Below, one piece after another: positions 1,375 through 27,862 of a stretch of DNA of 47,751 nt. The first letter of the stretch is position 1; each line of letters starts with the position of its first letter. The notes beneath the pieces were generated by a model, which was given only the letters and a program-made list of their open reading frames with translations, did no database searches and was not told the DNA's origin. A program made the position numbers and the translations under genes. Source of the stretch: a virus (Duplodnaviria; Heunggongvirae; Uroviricota; Caudoviricetes); the IMG/VR virus record IMGVR_UViG_2909267149_000003, one strand, 5' to 3'.

Positions 1375-3749
1375 TAGATTGACTCCCCCACCTGAGCATC
1401 AGTCAATGCCTTGTGCCATATTCTGAAATTCCTGACATGACCAAATAAATGACGTAACCCGGCTGTAGTCTGGCCTCCAATACGGATAATTGCGGTGTTC
1501 TGAATACAGGACCATGTGGTTTTTGTTTCGCTGGATATATGCCCGTTACTTACTGAGCACGTAGACTGCTCTGACTTTACACGCATCCCCATAACCATTT
1601 TTTCAAGCGATGCGTTTTCGTTTACCCGTCTGTTAGCTCCTCCAATATCGCAATAAGGAAATCCGTCGTAATCTGTTGAACGACCGAAGCCAAGAATAAT
1701 AGCCGCTCCGGTTTGATGACCGCCGGTATCAAAAACACGTGGCGCTGCATTTGGCGTTTTATACCAGTTCTTATGTACCTCACAAAGAACCGTAAAAGGA
1801 AGATTATAAAGATTATTCTTAATTGGAACTGTAACTATATCGCTTGCGCGGGTCGCCGCCGTCGCTCCTGATATAATAAAAGATGATACACAAGGCCCAT
1901 CTTCTACTTGTGGGGTGGCCAGATAAATATAGTCACCAGATACGGTTGCCCCGCTCTGCTTAGGAGAATACTGTATCTGAGAGCCTATTTTTAACTCCCC
2001 ATCAATTGCCTGAATTGTTGCCTCTGCAAAAATCCATCCGGTAGCTTCGTCCTTTCTGACTCTCGCTGTAATCCTTGAGGCAGCACCGCCTGTCATATTA
2101 ATTTCAAGCGTTTGTGTATCAATATACGCATCACCAAGAAAAGTTGTTGCGCTACCGTCATATTTATCAAACCGGATACGCAACCTTACCTGCAGTTCTG
2201 TTTTAAAACGACATGAGGTTGTCACGTGTTTATTATCGCCTGAGACATCAACTGACTTTGTTGCAGCAATTGATGCCATATTAATGGCTGAGGTTTGCCC
2301 AATCAGAGAATCGTTGCAGACAAACTTTCCATAGGTAAAACCAAAATTATCCGTCCCTGTTTCGGGCACATCCATATTTGACGCTCGCCCCCAACTGGCA
2401 GGGCTTTCCGAATTGAGCATGTAGTTTGTTCTTTGCCCCTCAATAAGCAGGCCATCACGTTCAAATCGTGGCTCGTCAATGGCAGCCTCTGTCAGCACAC
2501 CAGATTTGTTAATATAGGTTGCTTTCGATGCACGTTTAAACTTAACAATCTTGTCGCCAGGCATCGTTATTTCATCGTCACCAATAACAATTTTTTTATA
2601 TGATGGCGAAAAGCCCGTAATCATATCCAGCGAATCGTTAAATGGTATCCACACATCAGGCAGCGGCTGTAAGACATATTTATACGGCTCCGCAGCCTGG
2701 CTTGCGTACTCTCTGGCTGCATCTTCGCTTGCTTTAGCTGCCGTCTGGCTTGCAGCGGATGCTTTCGCCGAGTTCGCCGCTGCAGTCTCGCTTGTCTTTG
2801 CATTGGTTTCACTGGTTTTTGCTGCTTTTTGACTGTTGGCTGATGCAGTGGCAGAAGCAGCCGCCGCGCTTGCAGAACCAGCTGCAGCACTCTCGCTTTG
2901 GGCTGCTGCATCCTGACTGTTTTTCGCCGCAGTTTCGCTGGCTTTGGCATTCGTTTCGCTGGTCTTCGCTGCCGTCTGGCTGGACTTTGCGTTAGTTTCA
3001 CTCGTCTTCGCAGCTTTCTGGCTGTTAGCCGCAGCAGTTGCTGATCCAGCTGCTGAAGTCGCAGAACCGGCTGCCGCGCTCTCGCTTTGGGCTGCTGCAA
3101 CCTGGCTGTTTTTTGCCGCAGTTTCACTGGCTTTGGCATTCGTTTCGCTTGTTTTCGCTGCCGTCTGGCTGGACTTTGCGTTGGTTTCGCTCGTCTTTGC
3201 GGCTGTCTCGCTATTTTTCGCGTTGGTTTCTGATTTTTTGGCTGCTGTCGCGGAGTTTGCCGATGCAGTCTGCGAGGACGCTGCCGCCTGTGCGCTGTTA
3301 GCTGCATTTGTTTCTGAGGTTTTCGCCGCGTTCTTCGATGATGCCGCTGCAGTTTCGGATTTCTTTGCCGCTGCTGCGCTCTGAGAGGCGGCTTCGGCGT
3401 TGCGTGCCGCTTCTTCCACCATTGCCTCAAAACGACGCAATGCCTCCGGCATGACATCATCCTCCGTCATGGCACCGAGAAAATCATTCAGCGTACCTGG
3501 TCTGGAACCTTCATAGACGGTAATGGTCCCGGCATGTGAAGGCGGAAAACCTTCAACCAGCAGGGTGACGCTGTACTGACCATACTCAACATCCATGCTG
3601 TAACGCCCGGCTTCATCCGGATTTTCAGAGGCCACCGTGTTCACCAGTACCGTGGTGCTGTTACGCTTTGCCTTCAGTTGAATAGTGCAGTTCTGTATTG
3701 GTTTTCCCGCACCATCTTTCAGCACACCTGAGATTTTTACTGCTGCCAT
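1374..3749 (-). CDS. stf: side tail fibre protein (lambda Stf-like N-terminus, Ala/Ser/Thr-rich repeat shaft, LamG/ConA-like C-terminus)
   Basis: N-terminus MAAVKISGVLKDGAGKPIQNCTIQLKAKRNSTTV closely matches lambda Stf; long AAKTSETNAKSSQTAAK repeats; C-terminal NFRIWHKALTDAQV resembles the closing motif of LamG-type lectin domains. The ORF track starts at a GTG at 3755; the ATG at 3749 is the likely start. Confidence 0.85.
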   Translation of the reverse strand: MAAVKISGVLKDGAGKPIQNCTIQLKAKRNSTTVLVNTVASENPDEAGRYSMDVEYGQYSVTLLVEGFPPSHAGTITVYEGSRPGTLNDFLGAMTEDDVMPEALRRFEAMVEEAARNAEAASQSAAAAKKSETAAASSKNAAKTSETNAANSAQAAASSQTASANSATAAKKSETNAKNSETAAKTSETNAKSSQTAAKTSETNAKASETAAKNSQVAAAQSESAAAGSATSAAGSATAAANSQKAAKTSETNAKSSQTAAKTSETNAKASETAAKNSQDAAAQSESAAAGSASAAAASATASANSQKAAKTSETNAKTSETAAANSAKASAASQTAAKASEDAAREYASQAAEPYKYVLQPLPDVWIPFNDSLDMITGFSPSYKKIVIGDDEITMPGDKIVKFKRASKATYINKSGVLTEAAIDEPRFERDGLLIEGQRTNYMLNSESPASWGRASNMDVPETGTDNFGFTYGKFVCNDSLIGQTSAINMASIAATKSVDVSGDNKHVTTSCRFKTELQVRLRIRFDKYDGSATTFLGDAYIDTQTLEINMTGGAASRITARVRKDEATGWIFAEATIQAIDGELKIGSQIQYSPKQSGATVSGDYIYLATPQVEDGPCVSSFIISGATAATRASDIVTVPIKNNLYNLPFTVLCEVHKNWYKTPNAAPRVFDTGGHQTGAAIILGFGRSTDYDGFPYCDIGGANRRVNENASLEKMVMGMRVKSEQSTCSVSNGHISSETKTTWSCIQNTAIIRIGGQTTAGLRHLFGHVRNFRIWHKALTDAQVGESI
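2870..3247. repeat. tandem duplication (about 189 bp x 2) inside stf coding sequence
   Basis: Segments starting near 2881 and 3061 are near-identical (e.g. ctctcgctttgggctgctgca, gcattcgtttcgct, gccgtctggctggactttgcgtt); this produces the many overlapping out-of-frame ORFs in the track at 2551-3460. Confidence 0.75.
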
Positions 3750-3760
3750 ATCCACTCCAC

Positions 3761-3786
3761 AAAAAAGCCCGCCTGAACCGGCGGGC
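3761..3786 (-). terminator. rho-independent terminator between lom and stf
   Basis: Minus-strand hairpin GCCCGCC-GGUUCA-GGCGGGC followed by UUUUUU (plus-strand A6 at 3761-3766). Confidence 0.6.
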
Positions 3787-3813
3787 TGTCATAACACTGT
3801 GTTACCTGGCTAA

Positions 3814-4413
3814 TCAGAACTTATAACCGACACCCACGATGAAACCGTCAGTGCGCCAGTCGCCACTGCCGGAGCCTTCATAAGCAATATCAATGGCCAC
3901 GGATTCGGTCGGGTTAAACTGCACGCCAGCTCCCCACGCCAGAGACGTGTTGCTGTGGCGATCGTCATCACTTCCGGTCAGCACATCGTGCGTTTTCCCC
4001 TTGTTGTCAGTTACGCGGAGATAATCCCCGGAGAACATCGAAACACGGCTGTAAGCCACACCTGCCATCGCATAAGCACTGAACCATTCATTCACGCGTA
4101 CAGACGGCCCCGCCATCATGCTGAACCAGCGGTTACGCACTGAATCTTCATGCCAGCGGGTATCGCTGTAATGCGTTTTTTGCTCATCTTTGGCATTGGC
4201 ATAACTGAATGACGTCACCAGCCCCAGCGTGTCCGTAAATTCATAACGGTATTTCACGTTAATGCCCTTCAGGTCATCACTGCCTGGCATATCAGTATGG
4301 GTCTGAAGATACCCGGCGCTTAGTGTGGACTGATGCTCTGCTGCGCTCGCTGGCATACCAGCGGCAACCAGCCAGACTACTGCGGACAGAATAACAGCAC
4401 ATAATTTACGCAT
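3814..4413 (-). CDS. lom: Lom/Ail-family outer-membrane beta-barrel protein
   Basis: 199 aa, N-terminal signal peptide (AAGMPASAAEH), C-terminal GVGYKF beta-barrel ending; position directly after J as in lambda. Confidence 0.9.
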   Translation of the reverse strand: MRKLCAVILSAVVWLVAAGMPASAAEHQSTLSAGYLQTHTDMPGSDDLKGINVKYRYEFTDTLGLVTSFSYANAKDEQKTHYSDTRWHEDSVRNRWFSMMAGPSVRVNEWFSAYAMAGVAYSRVSMFSGDYLRVTDNKGKTHDVLTGSDDDRHSNTSLAWGAGVQFNPTESVAIDIAYEGSGSGDWRTDGFIVGVGYKF

Positions 4414-4435
4414 AATTACCTCTCGCTTTTCTGCA

Positions 4436-4461
4436 ATAAAAAAGGCACCATTTCTGGTGCC
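4436..4461 (-). terminator. rho-independent terminator between J and lom
   Basis: Minus-strand hairpin GGCACCA-GAAA-UGGUGCC followed by an 8-U tract (plus-strand A-run 4436-4443). Confidence 0.6.
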
Positions 4462-4480
4462 CGTATCTGGGTTATAAAAT

Positions 4481-7400
4481 TCAGCTAATCGTGATGCCTG
4501 TAGTGGCTTTCTTCATCACCACAACCAGCAAATCGCTGATACTTGCTGTGGGATACCAGTTATTTACCAGCCATGCTGACACCGAAAACTCCAGTGTCAT
4601 GTGACCGTGACCGGCAGGCATATCAATAACGCCACTGTAAATCAGCGTATTATCCAGCGCGGTACGGTTATAAATTTCAGCACCGTTTTTCCGCACTATC
4701 AGACGGCATGAGGAGTAAATATCAGTATGCTCTCTCTCATGCTTAGCGCCACTGAATGCCACCGCCGGAATAACAATTTGCCGGTCAAACGGCTGATCGT
4801 CATAAACCCTGACGGTAATGGTCCCTGATGGCCACCGCTCCGGTGCCCGGGAGTCACGGGGGAAAGCTTTGCCCACTGTTTTAACGAGATCGCCTTCAAT
4901 CTGGTTCGCGGACAGTTTTCCCAGAACCCGGCAGTTCTCGTTAATCGTGACGTTGTTGAGCGTCCCGGAGTTCGCATTCACGTTACCGCTGATATCGGCA
5001 TTTTTCGCCGTCAGCCGCCCGTCCGGTGTCAGGGAAAATGCCGGAGGATTACCGCCGCTGGTAATGGTGGGAGCCGTCAGATATTTCAGGAACACTTCGT
5101 TCATGAATATCTGATCGCCCTGACCAACAAACATTGGTCTTGTGTTGCCATTAGACGGATCAATAAACGCGATACGGTTAGCGGCAACCAGGAACTGGCT
5201 CAGTTTGCCTTCCTCCGTATCCTCCATGCTGAGGCCAAGCCCCGCGACATAATGCCTGCCGTCTTCGGTCTGCTCAATTTTGACGCCCCACATGGCATTC
5301 CATTTATCGTTGGCGTCTTTCCACTCTTTCGAAAACTCCTCCAGTCTGCTGGCGTTATCCTCCGTCAGCTCGACTTTTTCCAGCAGCTCCTTGCCGAGAT
5401 GGGATTCGGTTATCTGGCCTTTGAAAAAATCCAGGTAACCTTCCGCATCATCGCTCGCCCGACCAACAGCCTCCACGAATGCCGATTTGCCGACGGTGTT
5501 CACACTGCGGATATAAAAGTAATAATCACGGCCCGGTTTGATATTGGTACTGGCGGCTATCCAGTACAGCGCCGTGCCAAGATAGCGGGCTGTGGTTTCA
5601 ACCTGTCTGATATCAGCAACCCGCTTTTCCGAGAACCAGAACTCAAACTGTACCGTCGGGTCATAAACGGCAAGATGCGGCGTGGCGGTTATCTGAAAAT
5701 AGCCCGGCGTCAGCTCAATCCGCGACGGTGCTGCCGGTGCGGCAATCCGGAACGATACCGATGCCGGATCGCCCTGCTGTCCCCACGCATTTGCCGCCCG
5801 GACTGTCAGCCTGTAGTTCCCCAGCGCCAGCTGCCTGAAGCGGTATGTGTTTTCCGTCGTCCTGGCCGTGCTGACCAGCCGCTCACTGCCGTCATCCGCT
5901 GCCACGGTCAGGCGAAGCATAAAGCTCACGCCCTTCACCACCTTCGGCGTATCCCAGCGCGCCAGCACCTGGTATTCCCCGCTGTCTGCGGTGACTTCGG
6001 CGGTCAGGTGCTGCACCGCTGGCGGCGTGACACCATTCACCGTGCCGCTCTGGTCGCCGTCAAAGTGCGCCCCGTTATCCACGATGGCTTCTTTTTCCGG
6101 TACATGCTGCACGGCAGTGATGGCATACGTGCCGTCATCGTTCTCACGGATACTCACACAGCGGAACAGGCGCTGACGCAACGTCGGCAACTTCAGCCCC
6201 CACACACTGTATTCTGCAACGCCGTCAGGAACCCGATTCACTTTCACCTTAAGTCCGTCGGTGACGGACTGAACCTCCACGCTGACCGGATTACCACTTC
6301 CGTCAACCAGGCTTATCAGCGTGGTACCGGAGGATGGCAGCGTGATTTCACGGTCGAGCGTCAGCGTCCGGGTCTGGCTGTTCACCGCCAGCACGCGACC
6401 ACCGGTGCTGATACCGGCATAGTCATCATCGCAGATTTCAATGACATCGCCCGGTACATGGCGAAGCCCTTCAGCACCCACGCTGAAGTCCACGGTCTGC
6501 GTTTCCAGCAGTTCCGTTTTAATCAGCCACAGCCCGGCGCGGTGTGCCTGCCCCCGGCTGGTACAGCCAAAGGCATCCATCTTCGTGACATTACGACCGT
6601 AACGGGCAATGGCCTGCGTATCTTCAACAAGCTCTGTCGCCGTCTCCCAGCCGTTGTTCGGGTCAATCCAGTTCACCTCAACGGCATTATGGCGGTCCTT
6701 CAGGGCGCTGAAGCTGTAGCGGAACGGCGCGCCATCATCCGGCATCACCACATTACTGCGGTTATAGGTCCACACCTTATCCGACGGTCGGTCCTGCACG
6801 AACGTCAGCGTCTGCCCGTTCCATACCGGCATACAGCGCATCGCCGAGCAGAAATCACTGAGCACATCCCACGCCTTGCGCTGTGTGGTCAGGTACGCAT
6901 TACAGGTAATGCGCGGCTCCGTGCCGCCAAAGCCGTCCGGCACCGACTGGTCGCAATTCTGGCCGATGACATACAGCGCCCATTTATCCATATCTGCCGC
7001 ACCAAGACGTTTCCCCATGCCGTAGCGCGGGTGGGTCAGCATATCCCACAGACACCAGGCCATGTTGTTGCTGTATGCCGGTTTAAACGTTCCGTCCCAG
7101 ATACCGCTGTATTGCCGCGTCTGCGGGTTATAATTCGACGGCACCTGCAGAATACGCCCGCGCAGATGATAATTACGGCTCACCTGCTGGCTGCCGAACT
7201 GCTCCGAATCCACCTGCACGCCGACCAGTGCCGTGTTCGGGTAGCACTGTTTCACATCGATGATTTCGGTGTATGACGACCAGAGCGTTTTGTTCTGCAG
7301 CTGGTCTGTGGTGCTGTCCGGCGTCATCCTGCGCATCCGTATATTGAACGGGCGCGGCGGCAGGTTATCCACCACCACCGAGGCCAGATACTGCGAGGTG

Positions 7401-21846: not shown

Positions 21847-23157
21847 TTAAATCCGAAGTGATGTGACTCTTCCGGTCGGTTTGACAATAGGGAATTGCTT
21901 AACGATGAAATAACCTCCGGCATCATTCGGGTGATCATTGCCAGATTTTTTATCAGGCTCCCCCTTCTCATCCCAGACCTGTTGCTCCAGAGATTCGGCA
22001 TATAACGGGCAACGCTTCACATTAACTTTATAGCGACGCTCACCATTGGCATTGCAGAACATTGCATTCATTGAGTTAACGCGATCTTTTACTGGCGGGT
22101 TCGAGCTGTTCACCACAACGTTAAAACCAGCCTGCTTAAGCTGGGCTATATCCGTCGTACTTGCGTTACTTGATTTTCTGGAATCCCCGGAAGCATCTGG
22201 ATAAATATAAATTTCCCTCACTTTCCGGTAATCATTCCCATCATACAGCCAGAAGCGTTCTTTAATGATGCGGATCATATCCGGCGTATCGTAGGCATTG
22301 ATGATTTCAGTTACCGCACATGGAAGCCCCAAACGCAGCACATGGACGATTCCCGCCATCTTTCCAACGTTAAAATCCATCCCAATATAAATCGGCTCCC
22401 CTGGCTGCTCCACTTCTTCGCAATTATTCAGTTTCCGGTCAAACTGATGGTAAACAGTACCACTTGTCAGGTTAGTAAACTGTCCTCGAAGATAGGCTTT
22501 AATCAGCTCTGGAGGGTATGATTCAAGAAGCGAAGGAATGTAATCTGCTGGCAGGTTCTTTTCATTATCGAAAGTAGATGCCTGCACCAGACCATACAGT
22601 GAGGCCAGCTCTGTTTTTTCACGCACGGCTTTAACAAACTGCTCGTAGACAAATTTGAATCCTTCCGGCGTGGTTGTAACGTCAATACCGTTGCGAAGTC
22701 CATCAATCTTATAACGCATACGTGCAATTATCTTGCGCCACGCCGTTCTGGCTTTTTCCTTCGGCAAAATGTCCAGTTCATCCACCAACGCATTACCAAT
22801 TTTGAAACCGACGATCGTTTGTGGCTTCTCCATCGATCTGCAGATAGTGGTTCCCCGATACTGGCGTCCGTAATAAAAGTGAACCTCTTTATTTCCCTCA
22901 TTAATTTTTACGTTCAATCCCCAGTCAGCAGCAACTTCTTCCACTGTAGGGTAAAAAATATCGCGAATTTGGGGATACGTTGGCGCAAAATATCCCTGAT
23001 TTATACCTGGATGCTCCCAAATCCCCTTGCATATGCCGCCACACCCAACCCATGTTTTGCCCGAGCCAAAACCAGCAATATAGGCTTTAAATTTATGGGG
23101 CATTGAAAGAAATCGCGCCTGAGGCACATTAAGCGTCGGAGAGATCATCTTCATCAC
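21847..23157 (-). CDS. terminase large subunit
   Basis: 436 aa; Walker A-like GFGSGKT near the N-terminus, acidic nuclease-type C-terminal half; overlaps the small-subunit gene. Confidence 0.9.
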   Translation of the reverse strand: MMKMISPTLNVPQARFLSMPHKFKAYIAGFGSGKTWVGCGGICKGIWEHPGINQGYFAPTYPQIRDIFYPTVEEVAADWGLNVKINEGNKEVHFYYGRQYRGTTICRSMEKPQTIVGFKIGNALVDELDILPKEKARTAWRKIIARMRYKIDGLRNGIDVTTTPEGFKFVYEQFVKAVREKTELASLYGLVQASTFDNEKNLPADYIPSLLESYPPELIKAYLRGQFTNLTSGTVYHQFDRKLNNCEEVEQPGEPIYIGMDFNVGKMAGIVHVLRLGLPCAVTEIINAYDTPDMIRIIKERFWLYDGNDYRKVREIYIYPDASGDSRKSSNASTTDIAQLKQAGFNVVVNSSNPPVKDRVNSMNAMFCNANGERRYKVNVKRCPLYAESLEQQVWDEKGEPDKKSGNDHPNDAGGYFIVKQFPIVKPTGRVTSLRI

Positions 23158-24223
23158 TCCTTACTCTGGCATCAACCACATTAATATTGATCGCCACAGG
23201 CTGGGGATGTTCATTATCTTCCACCGTTTCGATCTCTTTGCGCAGCTTCTGGTTTTCCATTCTGCGCCGTTCAATTTCCAGTTCCTGTAGCCGCTTATCT
23301 GCACATAAAGCCCCGCCAGCAGAAAGCAAACGCAACAATTCACGCCGGGCGGCAGCCTTATCCTCCAGCAGGATCTCAACACCGTATTTTCCGAGCTTTG
23401 ACCCTGCATATAATTGCCGCGCATCCCCATCAAGCAGTGTGGTATCAGCCATATAAAGCTGTCCCGTTCCCTCACCGCAGCACTTCGGGCAATCCGGATT
23501 GGGTATGGCGTTATCAACAAAGCCGAGGCCTCCATATTCCGGCTCGGGTTTACCATCTCTGGAGGCCTGTGCCGCAGCCTTATCGAATTCTGCAATATCA
23601 CGCCACTGGTAGAGATGATTCTCGCCCCAGCAATAACGGCAGTTAACACGGCGAAATTGTGCCAACTGATTGGGGTCGGCCTGGACAATGGCCATCAACT
23701 GGCTCACCAGTAAATCCAGGTCTGCGGTATAGCGTTTCTGGTACTGATTGCGGAAGTAGCTGATAGCACGATAAACCCTGGCATTTCTAAGCATACGACT
23801 GGCGTTGCTGTTAGCTGTCGCACCTTGCCCCTCATAACCGGCTAGTCGGTACGCCTCTGTCGGCTTTTTACCCTGAGCAACAAGCATCGCAAACTTAGCC
23901 TGCTGGTCAGAAATGCCGAATTCATCGGGACAGAACGAAAATTCCTCCGCGTCGCCCTCATTCAGGCCCGCATCGAATACTGGCTTTTTTTCCTGAGATT
24001 TTTCGTTCCGCTTTTGTGCAGTCTGCGCAGATTTTTTCTGCGCACTTTTTTGCGCAGTTTTGCGCATTTCTGTCTGCGCATTTTTCGGAGTTTTTTTGAT
24101 GTAACGACGGGCTGTTGCGTAATTCAGTCCCCTTGCTTCACACCATGCCACCGGAGATATACCGGAGCGGGTGTATTCAGCAATATACTCCTGCTGCAAC
24201 GCCCCCCAGTCCGGTCTGCTCAT
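23129..24223 (-). CDS. terminase small subunit
   Basis: 364 aa; N-terminal HTH-like region and AKFAMLVAQGKKPTEAYRLAGY segment typical of Terminase_2-type small subunits; immediately upstream of the large subunit. Confidence 0.8.
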   Translation of the reverse strand: MSRPDWGALQQEYIAEYTRSGISPVAWCEARGLNYATARRYIKKTPKNAQTEMRKTAQKSAQKKSAQTAQKRNEKSQEKKPVFDAGLNEGDAEEFSFCPDEFGISDQQAKFAMLVAQGKKPTEAYRLAGYEGQGATANSNASRMLRNARVYRAISYFRNQYQKRYTADLDLLVSQLMAIVQADPNQLAQFRRVNCRYCWGENHLYQWRDIAEFDKAAAQASRDGKPEPEYGGLGFVDNAIPNPDCPKCCGEGTGQLYMADTTLLDGDARQLYAGSKLGKYGVEILLEDKAAARRELLRLLSAGGALCADKRLQELEIERRRMENQKLRKEIETVEDNEHPQPVAININVVDARVRSDEDDLSDA

Positions 24224-24226
24224 CAG

Positions 24227-24478
24227 TTAGTCCTGATTTTTATCCACCCTGAGTAGTTCGCGCAGAGCAAAGGCATCCCCTTTTCTGGCAAGCTTAAACA
24301 ATGCCGCTCGTAACTCGGCTTCACCTTTCGCTCTGCCCTTACGGATGGCCGCATAAAAATCTGTCATTGCTTCCCGATTTTCTTTCAGTCGGTTCAGATC
24401 AACATCCAGAACGTCAGCGATTTGTTGTGCAGTCATCCGGCACGCTGCCAGAGACTCGACTTTCGAATACGGAATCAT
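24227..24478 (-). CDS. small hypothetical protein (possible DNA-binding)
   Basis: 83 aa basic helical protein directly upstream of terS; overlaps the 3' end of the preceding gene, so the true start may be the internal Met. Confidence 0.45.
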   Translation of the reverse strand: MIPYSKVESLAACRMTAQQIADVLDVDLNRLKENREAMTDFYAAIRKGRAKGEAELRAALFKLARKGDAFALRELLRVDKNQD

Positions 24479-25346
24479 TTGTCACCCCCATTGATATGCA
24501 GGGTGTCTTCTTCCTGTATTTTTCGTGAAGGATTTTTACTGCAGCGTTGTTCCAGGTGACCTGATGGTGAATGCGTTTATGGCTGGCACCCATCAGTGAA
24601 ATTTTTACGCACGACGGCGCATACATGACGGAGTAAAAACTTTTAACGTAGGTTCCGGAATCCAGATACAGCTCGGTCATTCCGCCGCTGTTTTTCTGCG
24701 TCTGTTTCTGCCCTAACTGGACAGCACCGATCGTCATAAACAATTCACCACAGCGACCGAGATTCGTGTACGTATTCACATCCTCGTTAATGCGCCCCAT
24801 GAATGAGAACGGTCGATCAACCGAACAGATAAAGCTGTTCATTGCCTTGCGTTTCACCCACGAAGCATGGCCGCCATTGTCACCAAGAAAATCCCCGCCC
24901 TGCGACATAGCGATGGAAAGAGCAGGTATTGATTCGTAGTACGCCAGCATTTCAGAAAGGATCGCATCCAGTTTCCTTATCGGAAAATAGGCCTGGTCAT
25001 AGTTGCGATCCACCCGAAACTGGAACTCGTGATAATCATCATCGAGCTGAATGAAGTATTTACACCCGACCAGTTTTGCCAGGTCGAAACAGGCATTACG
25101 GGCGTAAAAAATTGAGCGGCGGTCACAGAAATTATCGGCTTCGTCAAAACGACTGGCGATATCGGTTTTGGAAAACACCAGCACCTGTTCACCAAATTCA
25201 GCCATGTACTGATGCCGTGTCTTATCTTCATCATCAACAACGATAAAAATTTTCCCGGTATAGCCAGCACGACGCAACGTTCGGTAAGTCAGAACTTTGT
25301 CCGGTCGCCCGTGAGTCAGAATAAAGGCGCAAAAATCATCACGCAT
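24414..25346 (-). CDS. GT-A-fold-like (family-2-type) glycosyltransferase candidate
   Basis: 310 aa from the ATG at 25346, which has a GAGGAGGAGG RBS and overlaps the ParB-like stop (ATGCGTGA). Motifs CAFILTHGRPD, KIFIVVDDED and IQLDDDYHEF resemble the N-terminal strand and DxD signature of GT-A enzymes; no TM segments seen. Confidence 0.45.
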   Translation of the reverse strand: MRDDFCAFILTHGRPDKVLTYRTLRRAGYTGKIFIVVDDEDKTRHQYMAEFGEQVLVFSKTDIASRFDEADNFCDRRSIFYARNACFDLAKLVGCKYFIQLDDDYHEFQFRVDRNYDQAYFPIRKLDAILSEMLAYYESIPALSIAMSQGGDFLGDNGGHASWVKRKAMNSFICSVDRPFSFMGRINEDVNTYTNLGRCGELFMTIGAVQLGQKQTQKNSGGMTELYLDSGTYVKSFYSVMYAPSCVKISLMGASHKRIHHQVTWNNAAVKILHEKYRKKTPCISMGVTNDSVFESRVSGSVPDDCTTNR

Positions 25347-26130
25347 ATTCCTCCTCCTCACCACCATGCATGATCTCCACCATGCGCTGCGTCATCCGGA
25401 CAAATCCATTTTCAATAGCTTGCTGATAATCAATGATCACCAGCGCCGACTCCTCGAAAAAACACTGAATTTCAGCGGGGGCGTGAGCGTAATAGTCCGC
25501 AATTCTGCTGAAATTAAACACCGTGTGACGTTCTGCCGCACACAGGAGGAATTTCTCAATATCAGGCTCAAGGGAAGCCGAACGTATCCGGCTGATCAGC
25601 TCCTGCGTTTTCGTATCGTCGTACAGTTCACTGATATCCGGTTTACCGCCCGACGGCTCATAAACAGGCGTATCAATTTTCGTCGTATACGGCTCCTCCT
25701 CATTTCCTGTACCGGGCAAAACATCCGTCAACAGTTCATCAATTTCTGTCGGGATGAAGCCTGTCAGGGAGACATCAAAATCAGCATTGATTAGGTCCGA
25801 CAGCTCCATCCGCAACAGATCTTCATCCCAGCCAGCATTCATCGGCAGGCGATTATCTGCCAGGCGGTACGCCTTTTTCTGCTCATCCGTCAGGCCAGAC
25901 AGAACAATGACCGGAACAGAATCCATTTTGAGCATTTCAGCCGCCATAACACGACCGTGACCCGCAATAATTTCGCCCTTTTCGTCAATCAGCACCGGAT
26001 TAGTCCAGCCGAATTGCTTAATACTTTCTACCAGTTGTGCCACCTGCTCAGGGCTGTGCGTCCTGGCGTTGTGCGCATACGGTGACAATTCTTGTAATGG
26101 GCGATAGACTATCTTTAATTTCTCGCTCAT
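25339..26130 (-). CDS. ParB-like nuclease domain protein
   Basis: 263 aa; N-terminal ParB/Srx-type domain (IVYRPLQELSPYAHNARTH...IIAGHGR); acidic C-terminus. Confidence 0.8.
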   Translation of the reverse strand: MSEKLKIVYRPLQELSPYAHNARTHSPEQVAQLVESIKQFGWTNPVLIDEKGEIIAGHGRVMAAEMLKMDSVPVIVLSGLTDEQKKAYRLADNRLPMNAGWDEDLLRMELSDLINADFDVSLTGFIPTEIDELLTDVLPGTGNEEEPYTTKIDTPVYEPSGGKPDISELYDDTKTQELISRIRSASLEPDIEKFLLCAAERHTVFNFSRIADYYAHAPAEIQCFFEESALVIIDYQQAIENGFVRMTQRMVEIMHGGEEEEYA

Positions 26131-26267
26131 ACATCCTTGCTTTATGAATAAAACGCACCCCAGCAGCCAGTGCTACTGGGGGCGGAGGTGTTGCTGGTAA
26201 AGTTAGGTATTGGATCAATGAGTGAGTCAACATAATATTAAACTCACAATTATAAATCAGCCATATA

Positions 26268-27725
26268 TTAGGAGCGCCAAAAAAAACCTGAAAACAATAT
26301 AATAACAGGATAAATTTCAAGGCGACCAAGAATCATAGCTATGCACATTAAATATTTTGCAATGTCATTAAGCACTCCGAATGACGATGCAGTAGCCCCA
26401 AAACCTAATCCCATATTATTAATACATGCAGCCACTGTTGCAAATGATGTAAGAAAATCATATCCCATACCATTTAACACCAGTATAAAAAACACCGTGA
26501 AGAGAGTATAAAGAAAAAAGAAACTCCATACAGACCTCATTACACGATCTGTAACTATCTTCCCTCCTACATTTACACTCAACAACGCTCTGGGATGAGA
26601 AAGCTGATTTATCTCGTGTTTGCTTTGTTTGAAAAGTATAAGAAATCGAAGTGACTTAATTCCACCACAAGTTGAACCTATACATCCCCCAAAGAAACTT
26701 GACAACAGCAAAAACACTATCGTGTGCGTGGGCCAGCTTGCATAATCCTGCGTAGCTAAACCATTATCAGTGAGCATGGAGCTGGCAAGAAAAAACGAAT
26801 GAATAAAACTTCCATGCAAGTCATACATACCTATATGCCAGACCTGGAAAGAGGTAACAATGATCACCCCTAAGGCTATTAACAGAAAGAAACGAAGTTC
26901 AATATCTCTGATTAAAGGTTTTATCGTTTTCCTGCTAATAACAATATACCAAAGAGTGAAGTTGAAAGCCGATAGCAGGGAAAAAGAACCAGCCACCAGC
27001 TCAACCAAATAGTTATTAAAATATCCGATACTCTCGCTATGAGTTGAGAAACCACCAAGCGAAACTGTGGAAATCCCGTGACAAATAGCATCAAACAAAG
27101 GCATTCCTGCAAGTCTATAACAGACAATACAAGCAATACCTAATAAAGAATAAGTTATCCACAGTGTCCGTGACGTATCGGCCAGGCGGGGAGTGAGTTT
27201 GTCATCCTTAAATGGCCCCGGCATTTCTGACTGATAAAGCTTTGCACCACCAATACCCAATAATGGCAATACAGCAACCGCCAGAACAATAACTCCTAAA
27301 CCACCTATAAAATTTAACTGTGACCGATAGTACAAATATGCCCGAGGTAATGAACTAACATCATCAATTACAGTTGCTCCTGTTGTTGTTATTCCAGAAA
27401 CCCCTTCAAACAGAGCATCAATGAACGTTAAATTAAGTTCTGAGTCAATCCATAAAGGGAATGCACTAATAACAGAAAACAAAATCCAAAACATTACAAT
27501 TATAATAAACCCATCACGGGTACGTAATTGAATGCCAGATTTCTTAGTTGTATACCACGCTCCGCCACCAATACAAAAAAATATAACGAAAGTTATAAAG
27601 AAAACGAACAGGCTTTTTTCTTTATAAAACAATGCTACAACCATTGGTGGCAACATTGAAAGACTATAGAGCCAAACCAGGAACCCACACATATGAGTAA
27701 CAACTCTTACATGAGATGTATTCAT
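26268..27725 (-). CDS. trkG: Trk-system potassium uptake protein TrkG
   Basis: 485 aa from the Met in MNTSHVRVV; polytopic membrane protein with repeated pore motifs (TTTGATV, GGFS, GLGF); trkG is the known Rac-prophage K+ transporter; very AT-rich. Confidence 0.95.
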   Translation of the reverse strand: MNTSHVRVVTHMCGFLVWLYSLSMLPPMVVALFYKEKSLFVFFITFVIFFCIGGGAWYTTKKSGIQLRTRDGFIIIVMFWILFSVISAFPLWIDSELNLTFIDALFEGVSGITTTGATVIDDVSSLPRAYLYYRSQLNFIGGLGVIVLAVAVLPLLGIGGAKLYQSEMPGPFKDDKLTPRLADTSRTLWITYSLLGIACIVCYRLAGMPLFDAICHGISTVSLGGFSTHSESIGYFNNYLVELVAGSFSLLSAFNFTLWYIVISRKTIKPLIRDIELRFFLLIALGVIIVTSFQVWHIGMYDLHGSFIHSFFLASSMLTDNGLATQDYASWPTHTIVFLLLSSFFGGCIGSTCGGIKSLRFLILFKQSKHEINQLSHPRALLSVNVGGKIVTDRVMRSVWSFFFLYTLFTVFFILVLNGMGYDFLTSFATVAACINNMGLGFGATASSFGVLNDIAKYLMCIAMILGRLEIYPVIILFSGFFWRS

Positions 27726-27862
27726 ATCTAAATATTCTTTCAATTATAACCACCTTGCTGCAATATTATGATTATACTGTATAAAATTTAACTCCTCTTA
27801 GATCTTACTTCACTGTTCCTTATGAAACAATCATCAAAATGAATCATATTGTAGTTAAGATT

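Follow-up and report, generated by a model that had tools for sequence, protein, structure and literature searches.

The tailed-phage genome analysed here (Caudoviricetes; IMG/VR record IMGVR_UViG_2909267149_000003; 47,751 nucleotides, in the following called the window) is an intact Rac-type lambdoid prophage of Escherichia coli, in which a soluble glycosyltransferase of the TAGT family is encoded directly behind a ParB-like protein. Both genes overlap by stop and start codon, and their adjacency, order and translational coupling are near-universal among relatives of the glycosyltransferase. While the enzyme family as such is already known, its obligate, translationally coupled partner domain, occurring without a recognised precursor pathway, appears to be new. 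Tentatively, the pair can be read as a self-contained two-component nucleic-acid glycosyltransferase, which tailed phages would express together with their late (packaging) genes. A first-pass annotation, made by eye from the letters alone, had drawn attention to the two genes; its observation is confirmed by the present analysis, and its reading of them is partly supported.

The TAGT family was reportedly defined by Iyer et al. in 2013 in Nucleic Acids Research. It is represented in Pfam by PF20691, comprising TET-associated and JGT-like glycosyltransferases of the GT-A fold, and the downstream gene product matches this profile with 122.5 bits (cut-off 27.5, E=3e-35), residues 8-222 covering profile positions 4-205 of 205, as well as phrog_842 (E=6.8e-104). 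Thus, the profile search, which might have placed the 310-aa protein outside the glycosyltransferases, placed it in one of their families, and the protein shows the features of the GT-A (nucleotide-diphospho-sugar transferase) fold. The three GT-A hallmarks noticed by eye, CAFILTHGRPD, KIFIVVDDED and IQLDDDYHEF with its DxD, are all present. In an alignment with homologues of other taxa (A1), residues R14, D102-D103-D104 and E188-D189 are invariant, corresponding to the published R...DDD...ED(Y/F) site of DNA-acting phage GT-A enzymes and of the trypanosome base-J glucosyltransferase (bioRxiv 2023.12.21.572611). Translation starts at the ATG at 25346-25344 and not at 25367, the ATG of the mechanically called open reading frame (ORF), since 12 homologues from other taxa begin with M-R-D-D-F; these starts also bear out the length of 310 aa given previously. 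Three nucleotides upstream of this ATG lies the Shine-Dalgarno sequence GAGGAGGAGG (25359-25350), the strong ribosome binding site already pointed out for the second gene. No transmembrane segment is found in the protein, the highest 19-residue Kyte-Doolittle mean being 1.08, and no Gtr-like genes are annotated in a near-identical E. coli prophage, in agreement with the initial view of a soluble enzyme which is not of the GtrB type.

Recent PGAP annotation names the enzyme 'GREB1-related protein', NCBIfam and PADLOC hold no family for it, and its profile (A1) gave nothing credible against all PDB sequences. The PHROG name of phrog_842, 'beta-glucosyl-HMC-alpha-glucosyltransferase', is not transferable: in a tblastn search of 50,697 phage records (E<=1e-5), no T-even phage was among the 36 records found, and neither an alpha- or beta-glycosyltransferase (alpha-GT, beta-GT) nor a hydroxymethylase, i.e. 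no hydroxymethylcytosine (hmC) pathway, is annotated in the near-identical Rac prophage. This name is nonetheless attached to the transferase in some RefSeq phage records, while in GenBank phage records (ON032529, ON470581 and further ones among hits H1-H10) the transferase is a 'hypothetical protein' and the ParB-like gene a 'chromosome (plasmid) partitioning protein'. Judged by the sequence comparisons, neither the partitioning nor the glucosyl-HMC label is justified.

The upstream gene product carries the ParB/Srx-type domain that the first-pass annotation had assumed, as PF02195 is matched just above its cut-off (28.9 versus 26.3 bits). This N-terminal domain aligns with solved Spo0J/ParB structures, with R23, G57-H58-G59-R60 and N93 lining up with their nucleotide-binding motifs; the box I Arg and the box III Asn are retained, whereas box II is AGHGR in place of AGERR, with a His where GERR has its hydrolysis Glu. 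Among 37 diverse TAGT-linked copies, N21, G57, R60, A63 and N93 are conserved in at least 90% and R23 and H58 in at least 70%. A much stronger relationship is seen to modification enzymes: residues 10-144 match positions 13-151 of 436 of the PADLOC profile PDLC03229 (MTase_II; E=2.5e-38), and residues 3-141 match positions 31-171 of 633 of phrog_498 'DNA methyltransferase' (E=1.2e-50). By these scores, the block of residues 10-144 resembles the N-terminal module found in ParB-fused DNA methyltransferases far more than it resembles partition ParBs. A canonical partition ParB (ParABS) was considered and rejected, as TIGR00180 is matched below its cut-off and by the N-domain only (38.4 bits, cut-off 58.45, E=1e-9), no helix-turn-helix (HTH) domain was detected, and the annotation of the near-identical Rac prophage contains no parA.

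Behind this module follows a C-terminal domain (aa 141-263), consisting of a YTxKIxxPxYEPxGxxP peptide, which is predicted to be disordered, and a compact helical core with the invariant residues R61-H62, Y74, Q82, E86 and D94 (domain numbering). Pfam, NCBIfam and PADLOC contain no family for this partner domain, and its profile (A2) gave nothing credible against all PDB sequences. Likewise, no description of the domain or of its obligate pairing with TAGTs was found in the literature, although Iyer et al. 2013 may depict ParB-TAGT neighbourhoods. In E. coli K-12, only the first 254 bp of ynaK (~85 codons, window 25877-26130) are left, joined to the ydaY region; overexpression of this remnant reportedly raised the minimum inhibitory concentration of six antibiotics (PMC12924614). 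In strain NA3664, the ParB-like gene is split by a frameshift.

Relatives of the TAGT were collected by scanning one genome per species, which yielded 80 loci from Enterobacterales, Bacteroidota, Bacillota, Veillonella, Planctomycetota, Acidobacteriota, Kiritimatiellia, Saccharibacteria, Alphaproteobacteria and others, including one metagenome-assembled genome labelled archaeal, with enzymes 45-100% identical to the query. The partner domain is encoded directly upstream of the TAGT and on the same strand in 78 of these loci, and in the other two the contig ends at the TAGT. The ParB N-domain, on the other hand, is detectable in most loci, too divergent to call in several and absent elsewhere, leaving a free-standing partner of ~130 aa. 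With a profile of the C-domain only, 4,182 protein clusters were retrieved, and the majority of the best 120 of these are stand-alone proteins without a Pfam domain; for two such proteins that were looked up, the PF20691 gene is next in both. (Counts of 45,820, 23,351 and 3,608 from a representative search were discarded, as the profile used held ParB_N columns and was not partner-specific.) Of the 50,697 phage records, 28 contain the C-domain, and each of these belongs to the 36 bearing a TAGT; the other eight of the 36 have either a fragmentary TAGT (Lactobacillus phages Ld17, LL-Ku and Ld25A) or, in the Porphyromonas case, a distantly related enzyme (27% identity). Carriers of the pair include Lactobacillus phages phi jlb1 and c5, Nocardia phage NTR1, Vibrio jumbo phages and the haloarchaeal virus HHTV-2 (gp21/gp22). 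No fusion of partner domain and TAGT was found among 161 homology-fetched loci (L001-L161).

The coupling of both genes is equally well conserved. In the window, the TGA of the ParB-like gene (25341-25339) is part of ATGCGTGA (25346-25339), so that the two ORFs share eight nucleotides, and direct reading bears out the overlap described earlier. Across 74 diverse loci, measuring from the partner stop to the start of the TAGT as projected by homology gave spacings of -8 (33 loci), -11 (27) and -5 to -1 (seven), i.e. an overlap of 1-11 nt is kept in 67 loci, while a gap of more than 5 nt separates the genes in only two. Because of this conservation, the ATGCGTGA-type overlap is not a matter of chance. 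As the C-domain is constant and the ParB N-domain often missing, the unit is best written as [optional ParB_N]-[partner domain] + TAGT, with ParB/Srx as its variable part. Hence, the first-pass annotation was right about the genes and their coupling, but the pairing element is the previously unannotated C-domain and not the ParB/Srx domain to which it had been ascribed. Within E. coli, 889 of 5,426 complete genomes, or about one in six, possess the pair at 80% of its length or more.

Further information on function can be drawn from the genomic neighbourhood, for which a Pfam run was made on the two ORFs to each side of the pair in ~70 diverse loci. Large-terminase ORFs downstream of the TAGT belong to Terminase_6N (21), Terminase_3 (13), GpA (3-4) and TerL_ATPase (3), and several small-terminase families are found there as well. 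Since differing terminase families adjoin it, the pair heads the packaging operon whatever the terminase type. This position is kept in relatives from Pantoea and Serratia, in Lactobacillus phages and in many unrelated phages; in Lactobacillus phage c5 the pair constitutes the first genes past the cos site, and in a Superficieibacter relative terS is present and terL undetected. The packaging-gene boundary was thus correctly recognized in the first-pass annotation, as the pair does adjoin the terS/terL region, whereas its notion of cargo inserted at the trkG moron has to be abandoned in favor of a conserved backbone element. Genes upstream of the pair are typical late-early ones (SSB, RusA, VRR-NUC, DnaB, PolA). 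Directly after the TAGT, a DnaN-like sliding clamp is encoded in four loci with a standalone C-domain and enough downstream sequence (L027, L030, L064 and L068), and a helicase in L023 and in Vibrio phage pv27. In one further locus (L062), a UDP-galactopyranose mutase gene (3340-4527) takes this place, which hints at galactofuranose as donor sugar there; single loci also have an epimerase or a nucleotidyltransferase gene on the upstream side of the pair. A Dam-type methyltransferase (PF02086) is encoded ~370 nt upstream of the pair in two uncultured phages with a stand-alone partner (L166, 1072-1839; L167, 190-957). Genes for TET/JBP (5mYOX), thymidylate-synthase-like or pyrimidine/dCMP hydroxymethylase enzymes are not annotated in the near-identical Rac prophage, and TET/JBP, thymidylate-synthase-like and dCMP-hydroxymethylase families are absent from the commonest families of the ~70 loci; the same applies to DNA methyltransferases in both data sets. 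For the remaining ORFs of the window, the best 25 of their 61 Pfam families point to ordinary lambdoid functions and include no hydroxyl-supplying enzyme.

Glycosyltransferases lacking the usual companions have been encountered before. PF20691 includes the T2/T6 enzyme which adds a second glucose to glucosyl-hmC, but 288 of 753 TAGT-bearing phage genomes in a 2026 survey contain neither an alpha- nor a beta-GT, and the function of the TAGT was described there as 'yet to be defined' (PMC13216743). Such 'solitary' TAGTs were already flagged as an open problem in that study. The enzyme is not an unclassified one, and on this point the first-pass annotation needs correction. Pyle et al. demonstrated that phage GT-A enzymes associated with 5mYOX glycosylate 5-hydroxymethylcytosine (5hmC), reported that ~65% of ~25,000 glycosyltransferase-containing contigs have no neighbouring base-modification enzyme, and listed ParB-like and terminase genes among the neighbours (bioRxiv 2023.12.21.572611). 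A subclass of phage thymine dioxygenases strictly requires a ParB-like protein, composed of an NTP-binding and a C-terminal domain without a DNA-binding domain, to act on double-stranded DNA (PMC13229309, published in PNAS in 2026). As cited in that paper, Iyer et al. 2013 hypothesized that ParB homologues steer modification machinery to specific loci. Moreover, fusions of the ParB fold to DNA methyltransferases are enriched in prophages, and members bind CTP, ATP or GTP (2025 survey, PMC12704722). A dedicated partner subunit for TAGT/JGT-type enzymes is described neither in PMC13216743 nor in PMC13229309 or bioRxiv 2023.12.21.572611.

On this basis, a two-component DNA glycosyltransferase is the explanation we would put forward. 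Its catalytic subunit would be the TAGT, using a metal and a nucleotide-diphosphate sugar as presumed donor at the R...DDD...ED site. The partner domain may dock on this enzyme through its disordered peptide and helical core, a physical interaction by which the TAGT would be activated or positioned, and the complex would be tethered to DNA by an NTP-gated ParB-type clamp or, in other phages, by the replisome clamp. New phage DNA would then be glycosylated before or during packaging and, as a putative anti-restriction benefit, be protected from nucleases in the next host. DNA is favored as the target because of the known substrates of the family, because the ParB module is shared with DNA methyltransferases, because clamp and helicase genes adjoin the pair, and because the enzyme is very conserved across E. 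coli, Lactobacillus, Bacteroides and Haloarcula while terminases and virion proteins differ. With 45-60% identity across bacterial phyla and 43% to the archaeal virus, a universal acceptor is favored over host-specific glycans or virion proteins. Of the initial proposal of DNA or virion modification or anti-restriction, nucleic-acid modification therefore stands as the most reasonable reading, with DNA as the probable rather than established target and virion or protein modification as a rival.

Several points weigh against this explanation. To our knowledge, Lactobacillus phages carrying the pair have been restriction-mapped without reported trouble, which argues against a dense genome-wide modification, and a modified base has been demonstrated in no phage with the pair. 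The ParB-like protein is acidic (pI 4.5 for the whole protein, 4.4 for the C-domain) and has no recognisable DNA-binding domain. In a structure model of the TAGT built from a 13-sequence alignment, the predicted local distance difference test (pLDDT) score falls below 50 past residue ~150, so that the C-terminal half is of low confidence and the acceptor site illegible. Furthermore, all characterised TAGT/JGT-type enzymes transfer sugar onto a hydroxyl group, as in 5hmC, 5-hydroxymethyluracil (5hmU) and glucosyl-hmC, whereas no enzyme creating a hydroxyl on DNA is encoded in the prophage or in the neighbourhoods examined. Either the acceptor is thus something new on canonical DNA, or it is not DNA. 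The former option, with the sugar attached directly to an unmodified base, the backbone or an end of the DNA and no hydroxymethyl-pyrimidine precursor, is a rather doubtful one; the partner domain would then have to supply the acceptor-making step, e.g. base flipping, activation or site choice. The latter is raised by the animal relative GREB1, a member of the TAGT family which is a protein O-GlcNAc (O-linked N-acetylglucosamine) transferase (PMC7968844).

Following the example of GREB1, the strongest competing explanation is that the TAGT glycosylates a protein. The most economical substrate would be the partner itself with its invariant, Tyr/Thr-rich and disordered YTxKIxxPxYEP stretch, with the functional product being the sugar-bearing ParB-like protein or some other protein of packaging or of the virion. 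Although glycosylation of the partner peptide would likewise account for the strict pairing, a glycoprotein of this kind has no known function, the DNA context (a ParB module shared with DNA methyltransferases, clamp and helicase neighbours) would be left without an obvious role, and the many invariant polar residues of the helical part (R61, H62, Y74, Q82, E86, D94) go beyond the needs of an acceptor peptide. Altogether, we consider protein glycosylation rather unlikely. Still less probable is a pair whose target would be RNA, e.g. at its ends or at a nucleoside of tRNA, or else a nucleotide or signalling molecule, so that a nucleotide-based host defence might be blunted, with ParB/Srx as an NTP-using enzyme. 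Kinases, ATP/GTP binders and CTP clamps do exist among ParB/Srx-fold proteins (PMC12704722), the partner is acidic and devoid of a DNA-binding domain, and the strong conservation across domains of life would suit any universal metabolite. However, known TAGT/JGT members acting on nucleic acids use DNA polymers, the ParB domain is dispensable in many lineages, and a place at the head of a late packaging operon or next to clamp and helicase genes is hardly expected for such a target.

The position immediately 5' of terS/terL, here and in many phages, or right past cos in Lactobacillus phage c5, could also point to a packaging accessory, i.e. a ParB-like 'nuclease' domain aiding terminase at cos or pac in the manner of the HNH proteins of HK97-like phages, with the transferase being incidental. 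Yet it is the C-domain together with the TAGT and not the ParB domain that is constant, the catalytic residues of the transferase are invariant, the pair is combined with several terminase Pfam families, and standalone versions reside among replication genes distant from terminase, all of which makes this role improbable in our view. Modification of a surface glycan, resulting in seroconversion or superinfection exclusion as with GtrABC- or TarP-like systems, would be an obvious task for a prophage glycosyltransferase but was rejected as the least probable of these alternatives: the enzyme has no transmembrane segment, the annotation of the near-identical Rac prophage shows neither a flippase nor a gtrA/gtrC-like Gtr partner, the pair belongs to the late operon and follows a terminator-like hairpin instead of a lysogenic promoter, and enzymes with 45-60% identity are shared by phages whose hosts (Gram-negative, Gram-positive and archaeal) differ fundamentally in their envelopes.

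The features of the locus are compiled in the table below. A stretch of 6 kb around the gene pair is 100% identical to E. coli chromosomes, and the annotated flanks in the near-identical genome comprise recE/recT, racR, kilR, sieB, lysis genes and trkG, followed by head and tail genes. As a terminator-like hairpin of its own closes the trkG moron, late transcription must read through this hairpin and would thus arrive at the pair in an antiterminated form, presumably of the Q type.

Features of the ynaK-TAGT locus in the window (aa, amino acids; nt, nucleotides)
Feature	Position	Strand	Remarks
trkG	26268-27743	minus	moron, upstream of the gene pair
Terminator-like hairpin	26158-26181	minus	10-bp stem with 7 G-C pairs, T-rich tail; closes the trkG moron; 28 nt 5' of the ParB-like start codon
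ParB-like protein, 263 aa (full-length YnaK)	25339-26130	minus	ORF reading
ParB/Srx-type N-terminal (NTP-binding fold) domain, aa 1-95	25846-26130	minus	PF02195
Acidic helical linker, aa 96-140	25711-25845	minus	pI 4.05; with the N-domain, forms the module common to ParB-fused DNA methyltransferases
C-terminal TAGT-partner domain, aa 141-263	25342-25710	minus	YTxKIxxPxYEPxGxxP motif, then small helical domain (R-H, Y, Q, E and D invariant)
Shine-Dalgarno sequence GAGGAGGAGG of the glycosyltransferase	25350-25359	minus	read directly; within the part of the ParB-like gene encoding its acidic tail (GGEEEEYA)
Stop/start overlap ATGCGTGA	25339-25346	minus	8 nt; read directly
Soluble GT-A glycosyltransferase, TAGT family, 310 aa	24414-25346	minus	invariant R14, DDD 102-104 (nt 25035-25043), E188-D189
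Small basic ORF, 83 aa	24227-24478	minus	between glycosyltransferase and terS; overlaps the E. coli-specific C-terminal tail of the TAGT
terS, terminase small subunit (context)	23129-24223	minus	PF03592, phrog_51
terL, terminase large subunit (context)	21847-23157	minus	PF03237, PF17289

The interval 24227-26130, originally presented as a two-gene module, does contain both genes but also a third ORF of 83 aa that had gone unmentioned. In the near-identical E. coli genome, PGAP gives a 69-aa version of it starting at 24436. The match of the protein to phrog_309 'terminase small subunit' (E=8.3e-23) is confined to the middle of that profile, and its conservation is limited to enterobacterial loci, the sequence being kept from residue 1 in a Pantoea locus (L004) and from residues 1-2 to ~76-78 in Serratia and Superficieibacter loci. 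It is probably packaging-related, possibly as an extra TerS-like or HTH packaging protein. Its start overlaps, in a different frame, a C-terminal extension of the E. coli TAGT of ~20 aa (window 24414-24480), which is absent from the 285-290-aa relatives of other genera. Another peculiarity concerns terS, whose 5' part contains, ~150 bp past the gene pair, an array of five TGCGCA hexamers and one TGCACA variant with A-rich spacers (window 24013-24085). Five of the 13 TGCGCAG matches of the window fall within 58 bp there, the array yields a cluster of hairpin calls, and the part of TerS encoded there is an AQK-rich stretch of low complexity. To judge from its letters, it looks like the repeats of pac or TerS-binding sites.

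Taken together, a large and very conserved TAGT clade turns out not to be solitary but to have one small, coupled domain as its constant companion, usually fused to a ParB module, and the pair can be addressed as a concrete, testable two-protein unit. After the thymine dioxygenase case of 2026, it is a second candidate for ParB-fold proteins serving as cofactors of DNA-modifying enzymes. As K-12 has lost the pair while the 889 complete genomes mentioned above retain it, E. coli lends itself as experimental system. If canonical DNA were indeed the acceptor, a new DNA modification chemistry would be at hand, and in thousands of bacterial and archaeal phages, temperate as well as lytic and including the Rac-type prophages of about one in six complete E. 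coli genomes, a sparse or site-specific glycosyl mark would have been overlooked by routine sequencing and restriction mapping. If the acceptor were a protein instead, the pair would define a new class of phage glycoproteins linked to packaging.

Among known systems, 5mYOX with its ParB-like activator (PMC13229309) offers a close parallel in architecture and adjacency, as exemplified by 5mYOX176/ParB176: here, too, a gene next to the enzyme encodes an NTP-binding plus C-terminal ParB-like protein without DNA-binding domain, accompanying in the 5mYOX case a post-replicative modifier of DNA bases. There, neither of the two ParB domains is dispensable, and each protein pairs specifically with its cognate enzyme. 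That system differs from the present pair in that an iron/2-oxoglutarate dioxygenase takes the place of the GT-A glycosyltransferase, and the constant partner of the latter is the C-domain, often without a ParB domain. The first ~140 residues of the ParB-like protein are homologous to those of prophage DNA methyltransferases fused to ParB_N (PDLC03229, phrog_498; E=1e-38 to 1e-50), with the difference that the small partner domain replaces the catalytic domain and catalysis would be provided in trans by the coupled glycosyltransferase. With the DNA glycosyltransferases of the TAGT/JGT type, i.e. the T2/T6 enzymes, the 5mYOX-associated GT-As and the base-J enzyme, the TAGT shares PF20691, the GT-A fold and the R...DDD...ED residues. 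These enzymes, however, act after a hydroxymethylase or dioxygenase (and after an alpha- or beta-GT in T-even phages), none of which is annotated in the near-identical Rac prophage or seen in the neighbourhoods scanned, and the T-even TAGTs are beyond the reach of tblastn at 1e-5 from the present enzyme. GREB1 possesses a homologous glycosyltransferase domain, and the E. coli protein bears the NCBI name 'GREB1-related'; GREB1 differs in being a large eukaryotic protein which O-GlcNAcylates a transcription factor and has no ParB-like partner. Finally, the alpha-GT of T4, suggested to act through association with the replisome (PMC13216743), resembles the present enzyme as a phage DNA glycosyltransferase with a possible replisome link, here indicated by DnaN-like genes after the TAGT where ParB_N is absent; it differs in its GT-B fold and in acting on 5hmC, and for the pair described here the corresponding interaction is suggested by gene order only.

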